IMG/VR virus record: IMGVR_UViG_2585427758_000010
Span: 1 to 14,744 of that record
Direction: 5' to 3' (one strand)
From: a virus
Taxonomy: Duplodnaviria > Heunggongvirae > Uroviricota > Caudoviricetes
DNA length: 14,744 bases
Below the pieces are notes generated by a model. The model did not search any database. It was not told where the DNA came from and worked only from the letters and a program-made list of their open reading frames with translations. The translations under genes were made by a program, and so were the position numbers. Below are positions 4,417 to 12,183 of this stretch, piece after piece (within the stretch, counting starts at the first letter, position 1; every line of letters begins with the position of its first letter).

Positions 4417-6681
4417 TTATACGGAAACTGGCACACGAGCAGGCAATGGATAGTGAGCCCAGTTATTAGCATTTAAAGCTCTTACGCCATCAGCATAAAC
4501 TTGTGTGTTTCCATCTAATGATTTTAAAGTTACTACAATAGTTACAGGTAAAGGCTCCATTAAGGCCGGTTCATTCGCTCTCAACGTTGTTTTAGCTTGA
4601 AGAGCCCAGTTACCCGAAGTAATTCCTTTATTAAATGCCTTGCGATGAATTTTTACTGGTGACCACTTTCCACCATGCTCAATTTGAGCTCTCTCATATC
4701 CAGATTGACCGTTTTCTCCTTCCATAGGTACTTTTCCTTTTATAGTATTATTCTCAATTAAGCCAAAACTTAGCTCTACGTTCGCGCGAACATATTCACT
4801 GCCGGCATTAGGGTTCAGTGGTGGTGCATATGCAGCAGTAATTACAATCTCACCTTTAAATTTTCCATTTTGAATAAGTGCCGATGGTATGGGATAGTTT
4901 TCCTTTCTCCACCTCACCCCAGGAACCAAGAATGTTTGGAAAATCAGAGTAAACCTATCATCACTATCATATAAGGTCTCAATAACCTCATTAGGAATTC
5001 CCGCTCCCAAATAGCGTCTTTCACTTGGCGAGTAATCAGGAGAAGATAATTGAGCGGAATGAATTAATAATGCTTTAATCAATGATGGTGAAACATTAAA
5101 GTCTGAATTAGTGGCTATTCTCTGCCATGTATGCGCAGCTAAACTTGCCACAATTGGAGCAGCAAAACTAGTACCAAAATTAGAGCAAAGCCTATTATCT
5201 GGCCCTACGACCTTTAAACTGCTTGCTCCTACATTCCAAGGTCTATGAACCCCACCGCCAGCATGGATTATATCTGGCTTTGGAGTAAATACAGGCCCAG
5301 GGCCACGACGAGTATATGGTGTCGGTGTTCCAATTTCACTTAAAGCATCATTAGCTTCCATATGAGAAACTGAACCAACTGTTAGTGCTCGGACTGACTC
5401 TCCAGGAGAGGAAATTAAATCAGCACCTCCAAGCGGATCAGGATTTGGCCATGTACGTATAGGTTCATCTACATAATTACCTGCAGCAACTACAAACAAA
5501 ATACCAAATTTATCGCTGAGCCGATCTAACTCCATCGCAAAATCACTAAACATCTGCTCATTACATGGTCCGCCTCCCAAAGATAAATTCCAGACTTTTA
5601 TATCTGGTCTTTTATTTACAGCATCTGCTAGCCTCAGAATTAAATCTGATATATAAGATCCATTTTCATCTAAAGCACAAACATCATGGATTTTAGATTT
5701 TGTATCAGGAATCCATGGATGATTGTCATTTAAAAAATGAGCGCCTGATATCAATGAAGACACCATAGTCCCATGTTCATAACTCGTATCAGGAGGAATT
5801 ACGTATGTTTCCCTACTCACTACCCAAGGAGTAATTGTTGCCGCGATGGGGCTTACCCCAGTGTCAAATACAGCAACAATGGGTAATTCTTCTGATGGTA
5901 CGGGAAAGCTATTTGTTTCAATGCCAACAGAATCACTTACACTAACCGGGAATGCTGAATATTTTGGTTCTGGAATTAACGTTCTTATACCCGGGTAATC
6001 AATGAGAATGTCTAATATATATCTATCATTTGGGGATAAATCCATTATCCTTAATAAGGGAAGACCACATTTTGGTCTAATCTCATCATATTTAACTCCG
6101 TGTTGTTCTAATATAGAAATAACGTTTTCATAGTTGTTGTAAGTTGCATCTTCACCTGTGTACTCAAATAGTCGTACAAGGATGTTTGATGATTCAAACA
6201 AACCATCAGTGCCTCCTGGAACCTTCCTATTCTCATCCCAAGGTTCAATGCGCTCAATCGCGCTTAGGTTAGCCAAAATCGCTTTAATATTCCGATGTAA
6301 AATGACTGACTCTAATACGTCAAAACAGCCGGCATGAGCAGCAACCAACATTTCATCTATTTTGGCATGACCGGCATTTTGCAATCCAGCCTCTTGAGCA
6401 ATTTTGTTCGGCCTATGCGTTTTGGCTATTCCCTGGTCTCTTAATTTGAAAACCAAAGTACCCAAGCTTCCAGGGTACTCTGAAAGTTTGGATTCTAAAT
6501 AATGTTTACTGGTTGTTAAATTTCTTACTAGCCCTTGTCTATATTCGGCTGTTACATCAACCAATACCTTTGCCCCACCGCCAGCGTTTACTATTGCACC
6601 CAAGTCACTACTGGAAAAAGGGATTCTTAACATTGGGTTTGTAACTTTTGCGTTACTAAACTGTGTACCCCTTCTGCTCAT
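4417..6681 (-). CDS. Subtilisin-like serine protease (peptidase S8 family), IetS-like
   Basis: 754-aa ORF with the S8 catalytic motifs in canonical order: Asp in VAVFDTGV, His in HGTMVSSLISG, oxyanion Asn in VVAAGNY, Ser in GTSFAAP. About 270 aa precede and about 200 aa follow the catalytic domain. AGGAG lies 3 nt before the ATG. The 5' end overlaps the upstream ATPase gene by 26 bp. Confidence 0.9.
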   Translation of the reverse strand: MSRRGTQFSNAKVTNPMLRIPFSSSDLGAIVNAGGGAKVLVDVTAEYRQGLVRNLTTSKHYLESKLSEYPGSLGTLVFKLRDQGIAKTHRPNKIAQEAGLQNAGHAKIDEMLVAAHAGCFDVLESVILHRNIKAILANLSAIERIEPWDENRKVPGGTDGLFESSNILVRLFEYTGEDATYNNYENVISILEQHGVKYDEIRPKCGLPLLRIMDLSPNDRYILDILIDYPGIRTLIPEPKYSAFPVSVSDSVGIETNSFPVPSEELPIVAVFDTGVSPIAATITPWVVSRETYVIPPDTSYEHGTMVSSLISGAHFLNDNHPWIPDTKSKIHDVCALDENGSYISDLILRLADAVNKRPDIKVWNLSLGGGPCNEQMFSDFAMELDRLSDKFGILFVVAAGNYVDEPIRTWPNPDPLGGADLISSPGESVRALTVGSVSHMEANDALSEIGTPTPYTRRGPGPVFTPKPDIIHAGGGVHRPWNVGASSLKVVGPDNRLCSNFGTSFAAPIVASLAAHTWQRIATNSDFNVSPSLIKALLIHSAQLSSPDYSPSERRYLGAGIPNEVIETLYDSDDRFTLIFQTFLVPGVRWRKENYPIPSALIQNGKFKGEIVITAAYAPPLNPNAGSEYVRANVELSFGLIENNTIKGKVPMEGENGQSGYERAQIEHGGKWSPVKIHRKAFNKGITSGNWALQAKTTLRANEPALMEPLPVTIVVTLKSLDGNTQVYADGVRALNANNWAHYPLPARVPVSV

Positions 6682-7810
6682 ATGCTCCTGACTCCTTCAG
6701 AATGTTTGAAATTACTCTTGATGTAAGTTTGTACAAATTAGCAAGAACTCTGATAGAAAATAATTTTTTATCTTTAGAACGTAACCAACGAATTTCATCT
6801 TCGTAAGTGCTTAAATTTACACCTTCCATAAGCGATTGCGCAAGATACAAACGCCTATACAATTTATGGTGATTTATCACACTTGCACCTTCAATAACTG
6901 CATCCCTACGTGCATCCAAGCTCACCTGTTCAATTATTGCTCCGGATAATCCCTCCGATTTTCTTGATAAATCACTTAAATCTAGATCGCTACATATCAT
7001 ATTCTTTAAACGATTTTTCCAAATTAACTCTCTCTGATGTATGTCAGGCAGAGGCATTGGAATTCTGAAGCTAAATCGCCTCCAGATTGCAGGATCCAGA
7101 AGTTGCTCATGGTTAGTTGAGGCAATAATTACCGTATCCTCTGATGCCGCATCCATATTCTGCAATAGTGAAATGACAACTCGCTGAAGCTCACCTATAT
7201 CTCTCTCATTACCTCTTGCTCCAGCTAAAGCATCAAATTCGTCTAAAAAAAGCACTGATGGCCTCTGCATTACATAATCGAAAACCTGTCTAAGATTTTT
7301 GCTGGTTTGTCCCAATAAACTACTAATCAAAGTATCGCAACGCACTGTAAGAAGTGGAAAATCTAAGCGGGTAGCGATGTACTTAGATAACATAGTCTTA
7401 CCTGTTCCTGGCTTTCCATACACGAGCATACGACTCGGCAATGCTGCATCAGCTTTAACAAACTCATCATAACGTTGAACATTAGTGATAAACTCTTCAA
7501 CACGGGTACTGATTGCTGCAGGCAGAAAAATCTCTGAACTGTCTAATTTAGGATAACTGACATCAACAGTGTTGAGTCGACTATCAATATCTACCGGTAA
7601 TGAGCCCAGAGATATCCCACCTCCAGCCCTTTGAGCTCCTGCCAACGCCTGGGGAGCTCTAAGCAACCTTTCTCTTATCATTCTGGCTTGCTTGACCTCC
7701 CCTTTTTGTTCGAGCTTATCTGCCAGCAACCCAGCATAATTACTAGCCATCGAAGCATTTGCCTTTGTTGCACCTTCAATGATTTTTAACACTTCTGATA
7801 AATAATCCAT
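6656..7810 (-). CDS. AAA+ ATPase, IetA-like
   Basis: 384-aa ORF. Walker A GKPGTGKT, Walker B VLFLDEFD, sensor-1 and arginine-finger region ...IIASTNHEQLLDPAIWRRF, so classic-clade AAA with an N-terminal domain of about 125 aa. GGGAG RBS 6 nt before the ATG. AT-rich codon usage, unlike the flanking phage genes. Confidence 0.9.
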   Translation of the reverse strand: MDYLSEVLKIIEGATKANASMASNYAGLLADKLEQKGEVKQARMIRERLLRAPQALAGAQRAGGGISLGSLPVDIDSRLNTVDVSYPKLDSSEIFLPAAISTRVEEFITNVQRYDEFVKADAALPSRMLVYGKPGTGKTMLSKYIATRLDFPLLTVRCDTLISSLLGQTSKNLRQVFDYVMQRPSVLFLDEFDALAGARGNERDIGELQRVVISLLQNMDAASEDTVIIASTNHEQLLDPAIWRRFSFRIPMPLPDIHQRELIWKNRLKNMICSDLDLSDLSRKSEGLSGAIIEQVSLDARRDAVIEGASVINHHKLYRRLYLAQSLMEGVNLSTYEDEIRWLRSKDKKLFSIRVLANLYKLTSRVISNILKESGAYEQKGYTV

Positions 7811-9234: not shown

Positions 9235-9981
9235 TTACTTCGCAATTCCTGGCTGGACGACATTCGGACGCCAGCTCTCCCAGTTAAAATTCACCCATAG
9301 CCCGCCGTTCATGGTCATGCGATCCATAATCCGCTCGCCGAGCAATGTTTTCATGGCCTCATAGTTCAGGTTTGTCAGCATCCCCACGCTGCGCATCGAC
9401 GCTGTCCGGCGATCAACAATCTGGTGCAGTACCACCTGCTCGTTTTTCGTCTCGCGCTGAATGCCAATTTCATCAAGAACCAGCAGATCCACTTCGCACA
9501 GTTCCCGCAAAAATTTTTCGCCTGACTGCCCATCGTCATAGCTGGCGTGGAGGGCACTCATAACATCAGCCACGGTAACCACAATCACTGTCTGACCGTC
9601 TTTCAGCAGGCGATTCCCGATAGCTGCTGCTAAGTGGTTCTTCCCGGTACCAGGTTTTCCGCTAAACGCGAAATTTGTGCATCCGGTCATCAGTTCATCA
9701 GCGATAGATTTCGCCTGGCTCAACGCGTATCGCTGACCGTCGTTCTGCACCTGGTAATTCGCAAACGAGCATTTACGGTGCAACGGCTGGATGCCTGAGC
9801 GATTCAGAATTTTTTCCACCCGCAACTGGCGATTCAGGCGGTTGATCTCCTCGCTACGTTTCTGGCCTTCAGCAAGTTGCCACTCGTGCCACTCCGCTAC
9901 CGTTCTGAATGGGGCGGTTACATGTGGCGGAGCCAGTCTTCGGATACGTTCAAGAACGCCGCCTGCCGCAATGTTTTTCAT
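9235..9981 (-). CDS. DnaC-like replicative helicase loader (IstB/DnaC ATPase family), lambda P analogue
   Basis: 248-aa ORF with Walker [16 protein letters not shown], Walker B LLVLDEIG, and size and position typical of prophage DnaC homologues such as Rac YdaV. Confidence 0.9.
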
Positions 9982-9987
9982 GACACG

Positions 9988-10950
9988 TCACCCCCTGAAT
10001 CCCGGCGGTATTTCAGTGTCCGGTTCAGAAATGTGATTCACGCAACGCTGCGCAGGCAAACGCCCCAGGCGGATAACCAGTTCATCCCATTTTTCCCGGA
10101 GTTTTGCCGGACTCATGATGTTTTTTACCCAGAACGAATCCCGCTGGAGACGCCCAAACATTTCACAAATTTGTCTGTGAGTTCTGCCATCCAGCATCCG
10201 CATTGTGCGAACGTCATTGGCCCATGCTGTCCAGTTGGGTTCTTTCGGTCTAGTGATCTCGCCATCATAGCTGGCCGCCTGCTCGTAAAGACTCACGATT
10301 CGTCCCCAGATCCACTGTGCGCACACCAAATCTTCCTGACTTCCCCACTGGCGTTTTTTCGCACTGAACACAACCGCGTCAGGGTGTCGGGTTAAAAAAT
10401 CCTGTTCAGCCGTCTGCGGGTCCGGTTGCGAAGCGTCCGGACAAGAAGATCTTTTATCTGACGGATCAGGTTTTAATACTGACGGATCGGGGTCAATCAT
10501 CGGCCCCCTAATCGGCAGTTTTTTATCAACAGTTGATCCATCAAAATTTGACGGGTCAACCGTTGAGGGGTCAATATTTGACGGGTCAACTGTTAACGGG
10601 TCATTTTTTGCCGGGCTAATTTTTCTTTTCGGTTTATATGACTCACGCGCCGCCGCCGCAGCTGCTTCGAGTTTTTCCACATTAAGCCGATAGATATTGC
10701 TTACATTACGCCCACCGACCTTACGCTCTTCCTTCGTCAGCCAGCCCTCTTTCGCCAGTTCTGCAATAGCCGATTTCACTGTGGATTCACTTCTTGCACC
10801 GATCTGACGCCGGATAGTTTCAATGGCAGGCCATGACACGCCCTCGTCATTGCTGTAGTCTGCAAGACGGGCCATAACCGCCACCCTGGATAAGATCATG
10901 CCGGTGAAGGCGCACCCTTCCCAGACAAGACCATGAAGCTTGCTGCTCAT
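9988..10950 (-). CDS. Replication initiator / replisome organiser (lambda O-like or YdaU-like), containing the putative origin
   Basis: N-terminal winged-helix-like segment (...WPAIETIRRQIGARSESTVKSAIAELAKEGWL...), a central repeat-encoded linker (DPLTVDPSNIDPSTVDPSNFDGSTVD) and a C-terminal domain. ATG at 10948-10950 is preceded by a G-rich RBS; the track ORF starts at an upstream GTG (10965). Confidence 0.8.
   Translation of the reverse strand: MSSKLHGLVWEGCAFTGMILSRVAVMARLADYSNDEGVSWPAIETIRRQIGARSESTVKSAIAELAKEGWLTKEERKVGGRNVSNIYRLNVEKLEAAAAAARESYKPKRKISPAKNDPLTVDPSNIDPSTVDPSNFDGSTVDKKLPIRGPMIDPDPSVLKPDPSDKRSSCPDASQPDPQTAEQDFLTRHPDAVVFSAKKRQWGSQEDLVCAQWIWGRIVSLYEQAASYDGEITRPKEPNWTAWANDVRTMRMLDGRTHRQICEMFGRLQRDSFWVKNIMSPAKLREKWDELVIRLGRLPAQRCVNHISEPDTEIPPGFRG
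10527..10643. repeat. Iteron-like array plus adjacent AT-rich tract: putative phage origin of replication inside the initiator gene
   Basis: Five tandem units of about 15 bp, each a TTGA-N4-TCAA dyad: agTTGAtccaTCAAaa, atTTGAcgggTCAAc, cgTTGAggggTCAAt, atTTGAcgggTCAAc, tgTTAAcgggTCATt. The 15-mer ATTTGACGGGTCAAC is identical at 10546-10560 and 10576-10590. Followed by TTTTTTGCCGGGCTAATTTTTCTTTTCGGTTTATAT. Lambda ori has the same layout inside gene O. Confidence 0.5.
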
Positions 10951-10972
10951 AAACCCCCCGAACACCGTGCTT

Positions 10973-11398
10973 TTAGTGCATCACCACAGCATTCCCTGCC
11001 GGGCCGCCGCGATTCATCTGGTCATACAAAACAACCGCTGACGCAACAAAATCATCGACATCCTTCACCAGCCGATCCCTCCGTTCGACGATCTCACGGT
11101 AATATTCAGAACTGTGGCTGCGCATACGGGCCACCAGCAAAGGCGGCATCGCCTTTTCGATCGCCGGTAACAGAGCCTGCATTTTTTCAACAGCATCAGG
11201 GGTGTCTTTATCCAGCCAACGGAAAATTTTCTGGGTATTACGGGCCAGGGCTTCCGGATGGCTGTCGTCATACAGTTCCGGGAACGTCATTCCCAGCTCG
11301 AAATACGCTTTGGTAATTTTCGCAGCCGGCACTTTTTCGCCGTCCGGATGCGCCCAGACATTCATCGCCATGCGGATGTGTTCATGCTTGATTTTCAT
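10973..11398 (-). CDS. YdaT-like protein (cII-position gene of Rac-type immunity regions)
   Basis: 141-aa ORF directly downstream of the Cro-like gene, with AGGAG 9 nt before the ATG. N-terminus MKIKHEHI... Assigned by synteny with the Rac racR/ydaS/ydaT arrangement. Confidence 0.7.
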   Translation of the reverse strand: MKIKHEHIRMAMNVWAHPDGEKVPAAKITKAYFELGMTFPELYDDSHPEALARNTQKIFRWLDKDTPDAVEKMQALLPAIEKAMPPLLVARMRSHSSEYYREIVERRDRLVKDVDDFVASAVVLYDQMNRGGPAGNAVVMH

Positions 11399-11663
11399 GA
11401 ATCAAGCTCCTAGAAAGTGGTTGTGTTAACGTTTTGGTATCTTCCAGCTCGGGCCAAATATTCATCCAATCAAAAGGCCTTAGTTGCTGACGTGTAACTT
11501 CACCATTACTGGCTCGCTCAATAAGGACACATAACGATGCCCCTAACACTTGACCTTTACTCAATGCCTTTCTTAGATAACCGATGCTGGTACCACACTC
11601 GCATGCAAACATACGCTGTTCATCTGACGAAAGAGAATTGAGAAATATTCTTAATTCTTCCAT
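11382..11663 (-). CDS. Cro-like HTH protein of the YdaS family, first gene of the PR-like operon
   Basis: 93-aa ORF with a perfect AAGGAG SD 5 nt before the ATG. HTH region ...CGTSIGYLRKALSKGQ... and the motif LIERASNGEVTRQQLRPFDW that I associate with YdaS-type proteins. Divergent from the repressor gene. Confidence 0.8.
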   Translation of the reverse strand: MEELRIFLNSLSSDEQRMFACECGTSIGYLRKALSKGQVLGASLCVLIERASNGEVTRQQLRPFDWMNIWPELEDTKTLTQPLSRSLIHENQA

Positions 11664-11689
11664 AGCTACTCCTTAGTAAACACAGCAAA

Positions 11690-11735
11690 GAATACCCACA
11701 GGTAAACAAAAGTCAATACCCACAGGTTGTTTACC
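11690..11735. promoter_or_regulatory. OR-like operator/promoter region between divergent Cro-like and repressor genes
   Basis: Direct repeat AATACCCACAGGT at 11690-11702 and 11714-11726, each holding the dyad-ended 12-mer TACCCACAGGTA, plus inverted GGTAAACAA / TTGTTTACC. On the minus strand a TTGACT -35 and a TATTCT -10 at 16-nt spacing overlap these repeats. On the plus strand TATTAT lies 6 nt before the repressor ATG with no SD. Confidence 0.5.
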
Positions 11736-11763: not shown

Positions 11764-12183
11764 ATGGACAAATATGAATTTAGACGACAGCAACTCATCA
11801 AAATTCGTGATGAGAAATGCGATGGTAAAGCGGTTAACGTGGCCAGAAAGATCGGGCGCGAGCCTTCTTATGTATCAAGAATGTTGTACCCAGAGGGGAA
11901 AAAGGGAAAAAAACGGATCGCTGATGATATGGTGGAGATTATCGAAGAGTCCTTTGGGTTACCCCGGGGATGGATGGATGGTATCGTTTCATCATCAACG
12001 AACACAGCCTCCAGTTATGAAACAAGGGTTCTAACGCCACGACAACGTATTTTTTTAGATCTCTTAGACGAACTGCCAGAAAGTGAAGCGGATAAATTAT
12101 TAAAAACTCTTGAAGAGAAAAAACAGTATTACAATATGATCTACGAAGAAATCCGTAAAAAGAAAGCACAAAACGCATCATAG
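11764..12183 (+). CDS. Prophage repressor, RacR/DicA-like (cI analogue, XRE-type HTH)
   Basis: 139-aa ORF with HTH ...KAVNVARKIGREPSYVSRML... and a C-terminal LDELPESEADKLLKTLEE segment reminiscent of DicA-type repressors. Divergent from the Cro-like gene, and no SD before the ATG. Confidence 0.8.
   Translation: MDKYEFRRQQLIKIRDEKCDGKAVNVARKIGREPSYVSRMLYPEGKKGKKRIADDMVEIIEESFGLPRGWMDGIVSSSTNTASSYETRVLTPRQRIFLDLLDELPESEADKLLKTLEEKKQYYNMIYEEIRKKKAQNAS

Follow-up and report, generated by a model that had tools for sequence, protein, structure and literature searches.

Does the tandem repeat inside the replication initiator gene of an Escherichia coli lambdoid prophage mark an origin of replication, or does it only reflect the repetitive peptide that it encodes? 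The question is raised by the Caudoviricetes record IMGVR_UViG_2585427758_000010, of which 14,744 nucleotides were analysed; this whole stretch is referred to below as the window. The initiator gene is located on the minus strand (9988-10950) and encodes a protein of 320 aa, counted from the ATG at 10950. The array of repeats occupies positions 10516-10605, between the parts coding for the N-terminal HTH_36 domain and the C-terminal domain related to lambda O. The repeats are present, are under selection at the DNA level, co-vary with the DNA-binding domain and have a layout positionally homologous to that of ori-lambda; because of these features, which were established by sequence comparison, the array very probably represents the iteron part of a prophage replication origin, embedded where the initiator gene codes for its linker.

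The array is composed of five units of 15 bp and a terminal half unit, all given here in gene direction (minus strand). Unit 1, AATGACCCGTTAACA (10591-10605), is in the array register but degenerate, with two mismatches to TTGA-N4-TCAA; it is followed by unit 2, GTTGACCCGTCAAAT (10576-10590), unit 3, ATTGACCCCTCAACG (10561-10575), unit 4 (10546-10560), which has the same sequence as unit 2, and unit 5, TTTGATGGATCAACT (10531-10545). The centre of unit 5 is G-rich, and this unit is therefore read as lying in the inverted sense. The array ends with a half unit and an A-tract, GTTGATAAAAAACTG (10516-10530), and an A-tract follows the array in most homologues. On the plus strand, perfect TTGA-N4-TCAA dyads are found at 10533 (TTGATCCATCAA), 10548 (TTGACGGGTCAA), 10563 (TTGAGGGGTCAA) and 10578 (TTGACGGGTCAA again), and a degenerate dyad, TTAACGGGTCAT, at 10593. 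A previous sequence-only reading of the window had described five tandem units of about 15 bp, each with this symmetry; the array is indeed there, but four of its dyads are perfect and the fifth is not. The 15-mer reported to recur exactly 30 bp apart, ATTTGACGGGTCAAC, was found at 10546-10560 and 10576-10590. The number of units, five to six at exactly 15 bp within the cognate initiator gene, is that of an iteron-type array.

The self-comparison suggested in the same reading recovered both periods: Tandem Repeats Finder reported, for 10526-10624, a period of 15 with 5.2 copies (71% match) and a period of 30 with 2.3-2.5 copies (82-84%), and a repeat search returned five copies at 15-bp spacing. 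The self-match of the array is 0.69 at lag 15 and 0.80 at lag 30; it is the best lag-15 stretch of 90 nt in the 14.7-kb window, and none of 200 dinucleotide shuffles reached it. The strict motif, TTGASSSSTCAA, was not found elsewhere in the window. The super-periods of 30 bp in the window and 45 bp in Edwardsiella suggest that the array grew by duplication of multi-unit blocks. A solo site is located beyond the array (10489-10508, minus strand). It is a palindrome that has decayed, with TTGACCCC (10489-10496) as its right arm; in close relatives the palindrome at this position, GGGGTCAA-N3-TTGACCCC, is perfect. GGGGTCAAT is present as a direct repeat, with copies at 10489 and 10567. DnaA boxes were considered as a further origin signal and rejected: two plus-strand 9-mers with one mismatch, TTATCAACA and TTTTCCACA, flank the array at 10523-10531 and 10673-10681, but the window total of five is what chance gives (shuffle mean 3.8; five reached by 66 of 200 shuffles).

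A repetitive protein could produce a repetitive gene, the array then being a flexible linker of xDPSx pentapeptides and the periodicity of the DNA a by-product. The units are in frame, the minus-strand translation confirms the earlier statement that they lie in a repetitive DPS/TVD linker of the initiator (NDPLT-VDPSN-IDPST-VDPSN-FDGST, followed by VDKKL), and repetitive linkers rich in Pro, Ser and Asp are common. The periodicity, however, is greater than the peptide repeat requires, since permuting synonymous codons with the protein fixed removes most of the periodicity and of the dyads: the lag-15 match falls to 0.52 ± 0.04, against 0.69 observed, and the mean number of TTGA-N4-TCAA sites to 0.48, against four (0 of 2000 permutations reached the observed value in either case).

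Homologous genes bear on the same point. The comparison set, defined by the same N-terminal domain, included eight phages and 80 prophage loci from Enterobacterales contigs, with one genome per species. In all 9 phage homologues and nearly all of the 80 genomic ones, the N-terminal domain is directly followed by an array of 3-9 units of 15 bp, in frame and at the same place. The units are of the type nTTGA-SSSS-TCAAnn in close relatives with 68-77% N-terminal identity (Erwinia, Mixta, Edwardsiella, Morganella), of the type TCTGAC-NCN-TCAAAA in a large SfIV-like group, and are the palindrome TCTGAACGTTCAGAA in phiP27-like and a few other members. Within the unit, conservation is highest at the third codon positions, contrary to what a peptide-driven repeat would give. 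Serine is encoded by TCA in 31 of 33 cases within the units of close relatives, against 15 of 58 TCN serines elsewhere in the same genes (p=1e-10), and in 274 of 303 cases within the units of the SfIV-like group, against 208 of 672 elsewhere (p=7e-73); both p-values are descriptive and overstate independence, because units that arose by duplication and sequences that are related enter the counts. At the third position of the first codon, T is found in 44 of 48 units, compared with 264 of 1078 (24%) in the same codon families elsewhere, and lysine is AAA in all 218 instances within units, compared with 511 of 838 elsewhere.

The encoded peptides, by contrast, vary. In the close group, 53 units encode 34 distinct pentapeptides, with DPS, EGS, NPP, DPP and DGL among them; SKSDA and SERSE also occur, and the numbers of distinct pentapeptides in the close and SfIV-like groups are 34 and 77. 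The centre of the site in the close group is CCCC in 17 units and GGGG in seven, and the inversion turns Asp-Pro-Ser into Glu-Gly-Ser. The GGGG centre is that of an inverted near-palindromic site, and it is therefore the DNA that is kept: inversion is compatible with a binding site in double-stranded DNA but not with a peptide motif.

Conservation at codon positions, computed over 88 non-identical genes, has the ordinary protein-coding signature in the N-terminal domain (0.82, 0.87 and 0.52 at positions 1, 2 and 3) and is equal at the three positions over the 120 nt downstream of the array (0.72, 0.73 and 0.72), where the consensus GGTTTTGACCCGTCAGAATCTGGCGGGGATCCGTCAGTAAATTCAAAACAAGATCCATCAGATAAAAAA is almost invariant at all positions. 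Part of this downstream block, GTTTTGACCCTTCAGAATCTGG, is kept in another reading frame in phiP27 (L089, about 1930-1965) and in a Citrobacter prophage (L169), so that VLTLQNL is encoded there in place of the family's FDPSESG; one-base indels on both sides restore the frame. Codon choice, the drift of the peptides, the inverted sites, the equal codon positions and the frame-shifted block together demonstrate, across this large family and by comparison of its sequences, that the repeats are conserved as DNA rather than as peptide. The sequence-only reading had held that an origin would be refuted if the repeats were not conserved as DNA among homologous initiator genes; in the 88 genes they are. 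A purely protein-driven origin of the repeats is thus extremely improbable.

The repeats also follow the DNA-binding domain. When N-terminal identities obtained with tblastn are considered together with the unit types, the type of repeat switches with the N-terminal domain rather than with adjacent genes or the C-terminal domain, and on this ground the DNA-binding domain and its own repeats appear as one module. A change of C-terminal domain or of neighbours leaves the array and the N-terminal domain together, as in SfIV, Flotzy and YeP1; the Flotzy initiator has a Phg_2220_C C-terminus, and no DnaC-type gene is located downstream of the initiator in SfIV, P7641 and Flotzy. The mEp460-type initiators possess the C-terminal domain of the window initiator (about 86% DNA identity) and an unrelated N-terminal domain without a Pfam match. 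In their linkers (codons 111-170; L172 and L173), ATYGGKTYAAAA is present three times and an AT-rich tract built from repeats resembling ACAGAGAATA directly precedes the shared part; these initiators are a candidate for a further origin type sharing the O-like C-terminal domain.

Selection on the nucleic acid could also act on a structure, namely an mRNA hairpin, a cruciform or a single-strand hairpin that controls translation, transcript stability or pausing in the operon of initiator and helicase loader. The arms 10528-10560 and 10562-10594 form a 33-nt imperfect inverted repeat with 79% complementarity, the predicted RNA fold of 10430-10650 has a minimum free energy of -60.7 kcal/mol (z = -4.1), and an inverted unit ends the array in most close relatives. 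Any array of palindromic units folds well, however, and the energy is hence unspecific. The orientations of the units vary (CCCCn, CCG, CGCC, CCGCCG, GG, CCGG, CCCCG) and leave no conserved stem topology; the most conserved block, GGGGATCCGTCAGTAAATTCAAAACAAGATCC, is outside the hairpin; and the repeat type switches along with the DNA-binding domain. Selection for a structure is accordingly rated as very unlikely. The hairpin in the array mRNA (10528-10594) must be translated through by ribosomes.

The domains of the initiator were assigned from matches to Pfam, PHROG and PDB sequences. The N-terminal winged-helix DNA-binding domain (about aa 1-95; 10666-10950, minus strand) is recognised as Pfam HTH_36 (E=2.2e-6) and has weak profile matches to PDB winged-helix proteins of the MarR and GntR families. 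Residues 6-325 match PHROG 391, 'replication initiation O-like', over profile positions 1-298 of 298 (E=2.8e-114). The C-terminal half is 36% identical to lambda O over 141 aa (BLASTP, E=8e-26), and sequence similarity identifies this domain as a true homologue of that of lambda O. No N-terminal similarity between the two proteins was found with BLASTP; Phage_rep_O (PF04492), which lambda O matches at E=5.7e-36, was not found in the window initiator, for which HTH_36 is the only Pfam match.

The lambda-like origin with iterons inside the initiator gene, as proposed by the sequence-only reading, is supported by this homologous C-terminal domain and by the equivalent positions of iterons and AT-rich segment. 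The origin of lambda and Stx phages, in the middle of gene O, is made up of iterons and an AT-rich tract (PMC7466680). The annotated lambda iterons and AT-rich tract are at positions equivalent to the window array and to the block 10441-10488 on its other side. In both systems, the origin, putative in the window, is part of the initiator gene and coincides with the coding region of the linker that separates the DNA-binding domain from the C-terminal one; several dyad-symmetric initiator sites, likewise putative in the window, are followed by an AT-rich segment and then by the conserved C-terminal domain; and the origin is downstream of a pR-like promoter. The differences are also clear. The N-terminal domain is HTH_36 in the window and Phage_rep_O in lambda. 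The 12-bp cores of the window abut at 15 bp, whereas the lambda iterons are 18-19 bp long and about 20-24 bp apart, with unrelated sequences. The AT-rich block is less AT-rich than that of lambda and contains 21-bp repeats headed by GATC; the loader is of the DnaC/IstB type (PHROG 50), not lambda P; and the initiator, unlike lambda O, ends in a DnaT-like tail. The origins of Stx phages, with six iterons, are grouped with ori-lambda.

The position of the unwinding region differs from the one proposed earlier. The sequence-only reading had placed an AT-rich stretch after the array, and such a tract is present (10606-10645, minus strand, encoding ESYKPKRKISPAK): its part 10616-10645 is 73% A+T and the least stable 30-mer of the initiator gene, although only at the 87th percentile of the 40-mers of the window. 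In gene direction, however, this tract precedes the array, and it is not conserved in the family, its equivalent in 82 homologues having a mean of 45-52% A+T; it is probably not an unwinding element. The family-wide AT-rich peak (61-66%) is located 50-90 bp after the array, which in the window corresponds to 10441-10488 (minus strand). The BLASTP alignment pairs this block (DPSVLKPDPSDKRSS) with the lambda O residues TKDTITKEKRKDYSS, encoded by the AT-rich origin segment that directly follows the four annotated lambda iterons. The family-wide conservation and the alignment with the lambda segment place the likely unwinding region at 10441-10488, outside the interval flagged before (10527-10643). 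Since this conserved block is on the other side of the array, the origin extends beyond that interval, and the whole of it likely spans about 10441-10605.

The candidate unwinding block contains two 21-bp repeats, GATCCGTCAGTATTAAAACCT and GATCCGTCAGATAAAAGATCT, each headed by GATC, and its part 10449-10478 is 70% A+T. GATC sites are located in the block at 10448, 10464 and 10485, and a fourth in the array at 10535; these four sites fall within 91 bp (10448-10538), compared with one per 447 bp window-wide. The sequence GATCTTTTATCTG (10448-10460, plus strand) has a weak resemblance, 10 of 13 positions, to the oriC 13-mer R, GATCTCTTATTAG, and SfIV-like relatives match worse by eye. The GATC cluster, together with this weak likeness, may indicate control by Dam and SeqA.

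The remaining parts of the presumed machinery are the C-terminal tail and the loader. The gene directly downstream of the initiator (9235-9981, minus strand) encodes a DnaC/IstB-type helicase loader, as judged by Pfam IstB_IS21 and Bac_DnaA and by PHROG 50, 'DnaC-like helicase loader', and the protein is 96% identical to Rac YdaV over 248 aa. The initiator ends with RCVNHISEPDTEIPPGFRG (9991-10047, minus strand), a tail common to E. coli DnaT and Rac YdaU. Its last 19-25 residues, ISEPDTEIPPGFRG, match the DnaT C-terminus in PDB entries 2ru8, 6aep and 9zbt (E=0.002-0.005), and the 19-aa tail is the only segment that the window initiator shares with YdaU, though the loaders are 96% identical. 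The tail is thereby suggested to be a contact for the DnaC-type loader, and it may be a portable docking peptide for DnaC or DnaB. In the host, dnaT and dnaC belong to one operon (PMC13377028). The motif xPxGFRG ends many family members, even where the C-terminal domain differs.

Initiator binding, unwinding, loader recruitment and origin firing can be proposed by analogy, with the steps modelled on lambda (PMC7466680). Upon induction, transcription from the pR-like promoter would lead to synthesis of the initiator, whose N-terminal winged helix would bind at the solo site (10489-10496) and at the four to five 12-bp near-palindromes of the array (10531-10605; TTGA-SSSS-TCAA with a spacing of 15 bp). 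The resulting nucleoprotein complex would destabilise the adjoining AT-rich GATC block, 10441-10488, and the lambda-O-like C-terminal domain and the DnaT-like tail would then bring in host DnaB on the YdaV/DnaC-type loader.

The same sites could be bound by the initiator or by another protein for purposes other than initiation, such as autoregulation, copy control by handcuffing or exclusion of related phages, or could be relics in a defective prophage. Plasmid iterons serve both initiation and control, and cloned ori-lambda fragments are reported to inhibit related phages (PMC3349717, PMC4488673). A role of this kind would be exerted from inside the gene, because there is no copy of the strict motif near the promoter. 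The order of DNA-binding domain, repeats, AT-rich block and O-type C-terminal domain is, however, that of the functional lambda origin; the array is present in the plaque-forming phages SfII, SfIV and YeP1 and not in cryptic prophages alone; and roles in control or exclusion are compatible with origin function. A purpose other than origin firing, or a relic nature of the sites, is distinctly unlikely.

Other phages provide further points of reference. Lambda, P22 and L carry their own iterons inside each initiator gene (PMC8022706), and the window initiator resembles gene 18 of P22 and gene 18 of L in having its own repeat family inside the coding region (PMC8022706). The repeats number four in P22, each about 20 bp long, and six in L, with a unit of 11 bp (PMC8022706); both phages differ from the window in repeat sequence and in having a DnaB-type helicase (gp12) beside the initiator rather than a DnaC-type loader. 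The PHROG 391 proteins with HTH_36 include the initiators of the Shigella phages SfII and SfIV, of phiP27 (L17) and of the Yersinia phage YeP1. Their N-terminal domains are 51-72% identical to that of the window initiator, a 15-bp array is in the same place and the downstream block GGGGATCCGTCAGTAAA...GATCCATCAGATAAAAAA is the same. Their units, present in 3-9 copies, are TCTGAC-NCN-TCAAAA or TCTGAACGTTCAGAA, whereas the window has nTTGA-SSSS-TCAAnn, and in some members of the group the C-terminal domain is a different one (Phg_2220_C in Flotzy) and a DnaC-type gene is missing downstream. The GenBank records of these array-bearing phages carry no origin annotation, and literature searches found no description of a TTGA-N4-TCAA repeat family.

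The sequence-only reading had also proposed a comparison with lambda and Rac. The lambda layout matches; Rac was considered as a representative of the same origin type and rejected, because YdaU has a different N-terminal domain and different repeats and only the loader and the 19-aa tail are common. Rac (ydaU-ydaV, oriJ) resembles the window in its loader, in the YdaS-like and YdaT-like upstream genes, in the tail and in having mid-gene repeats in ydaU followed by an AT-rich stretch with GATC sites. The N-terminus of YdaU, however, is DUF1376 and its body is unrelated to the window initiator, and its repeats are CAGATGTTCAAACA at 33-bp spacing, as opposed to TTGA-N4-TCAA at 15 bp. In Rac ydaU of E. 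coli K-12 (L002, 2972-3145), CAGATGTTCAAACA is present four times in direct and once in inverted orientation, at intervals that are mostly 33 bp, and GATAAAGATCTAAAAACAGATCC follows; this stretch is a candidate for the sequence-level position of oriJ.

The differences from lambda could also be taken to define a distinct class of phage origin, with abutting 15-bp dyads that tolerate inversion, an unwinding block headed by GATC and a DnaT-derived tail that recruits DnaB-DnaC. On this interpretation, the GATC-headed repeats in the unwinding block point to possible Dam/SeqA control, and the tail, copied from the host restart protein DnaT, would connect the origin to the primosome interface of the host. 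Such a class is unlikely, though somewhat less so than the other alternatives, and a lambda-type origin remains the preferred interpretation. Several points weigh against that interpretation. The spacing of the abutting sites, 15 bp or about 1.4 helical turns, is unlike that of lambda and puts neighbouring sites on almost opposite faces of the helix, and the candidate unwinding block is only 62-70% A+T. The codon counts have the dependence mentioned above. The prophage may be defective and its sites relics, and folding energy alone (z = -4.1 for the hairpin) does not decide against an RNA-level role of the array region. Literature searches found no experiment on any member of the family.

The window represents a lambdoid prophage of E. 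coli that is of the Rac/Qin type. The initiator open reading frame stays open upstream of the ATG as far as a GTG at 10965 (9988-10965); the gene is supported by the open reading frame list, RefSeq, PHROG 391 and Pfam HTH_36, and RefSeq annotates the coding sequence identically in O157:H7. The early-right operon runs in the minus direction in the order promoter, cro/YdaS-like gene (11382-11663), cII/YdaT-like gene (10973-11398), initiator, loader, and DUF1627 and DUF977 genes; the divergent cI-like gene is at 11764-12183. The candidate pR-like promoter upstream of the cro-like gene (11689-11716, minus strand) was found by a consensus scan (9 of 12 positions) and is a consensus match only; transcription from it would traverse the origin. 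The promoter and terminator scan found nothing within the array. The products of the cro-like and cII-like genes (10973-11663, minus strand) are named 'YdaS_toxin' and 'YdaT_toxin' in Pfam, and a transcriptional repressor and a CII-like activator in PHROGs; the two sets of names imply conflicting functions. Two overlapping genes at 4417-7810 (minus strand) resemble the anti-phage defence system IetAS: one, for a 754-aa subtilase, matches the IetS model (E=3e-300), and the other, for a 384-aa AAA ATPase, the IetA model (E=9e-143). This IetAS-like pair is cargo between the DUF977 and DUF968 genes, and in O157:H7 strain Z903 its slot is occupied by an NgoMIV-type restriction-modification pair and QueH instead.

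A gene with 100% identity to the initiator gene is present in the chromosome of E. coli strain 102651. The initiator gene is matched in 3265 of 5426 complete E. coli genomes, with at least 80% of the gene in 1514 of them, including O157:H7, and the initiator type also occurs in Shigella serotype-converting phages and across Enterobacterales. The scan of viral contigs returned only copies with about 99% identity; these, 24 distinct near-identical copies, have too few single-nucleotide polymorphisms for a region-by-region comparison.

The initiator type is thus very common, yet an origin is annotated in none of the records examined. The locus is an ordinary instance of the well-known lambdoid arrangement of an origin within the initiator gene and leaves the lambda paradigm unchanged. 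It is at the same time a clean case in which a cis-acting DNA element prescribes the residues of a protein linker. Knowledge of the origin provides a handle for prophage annotation, for origin plasmids and for predicting replication incompatibility or exclusion between co-resident prophages.

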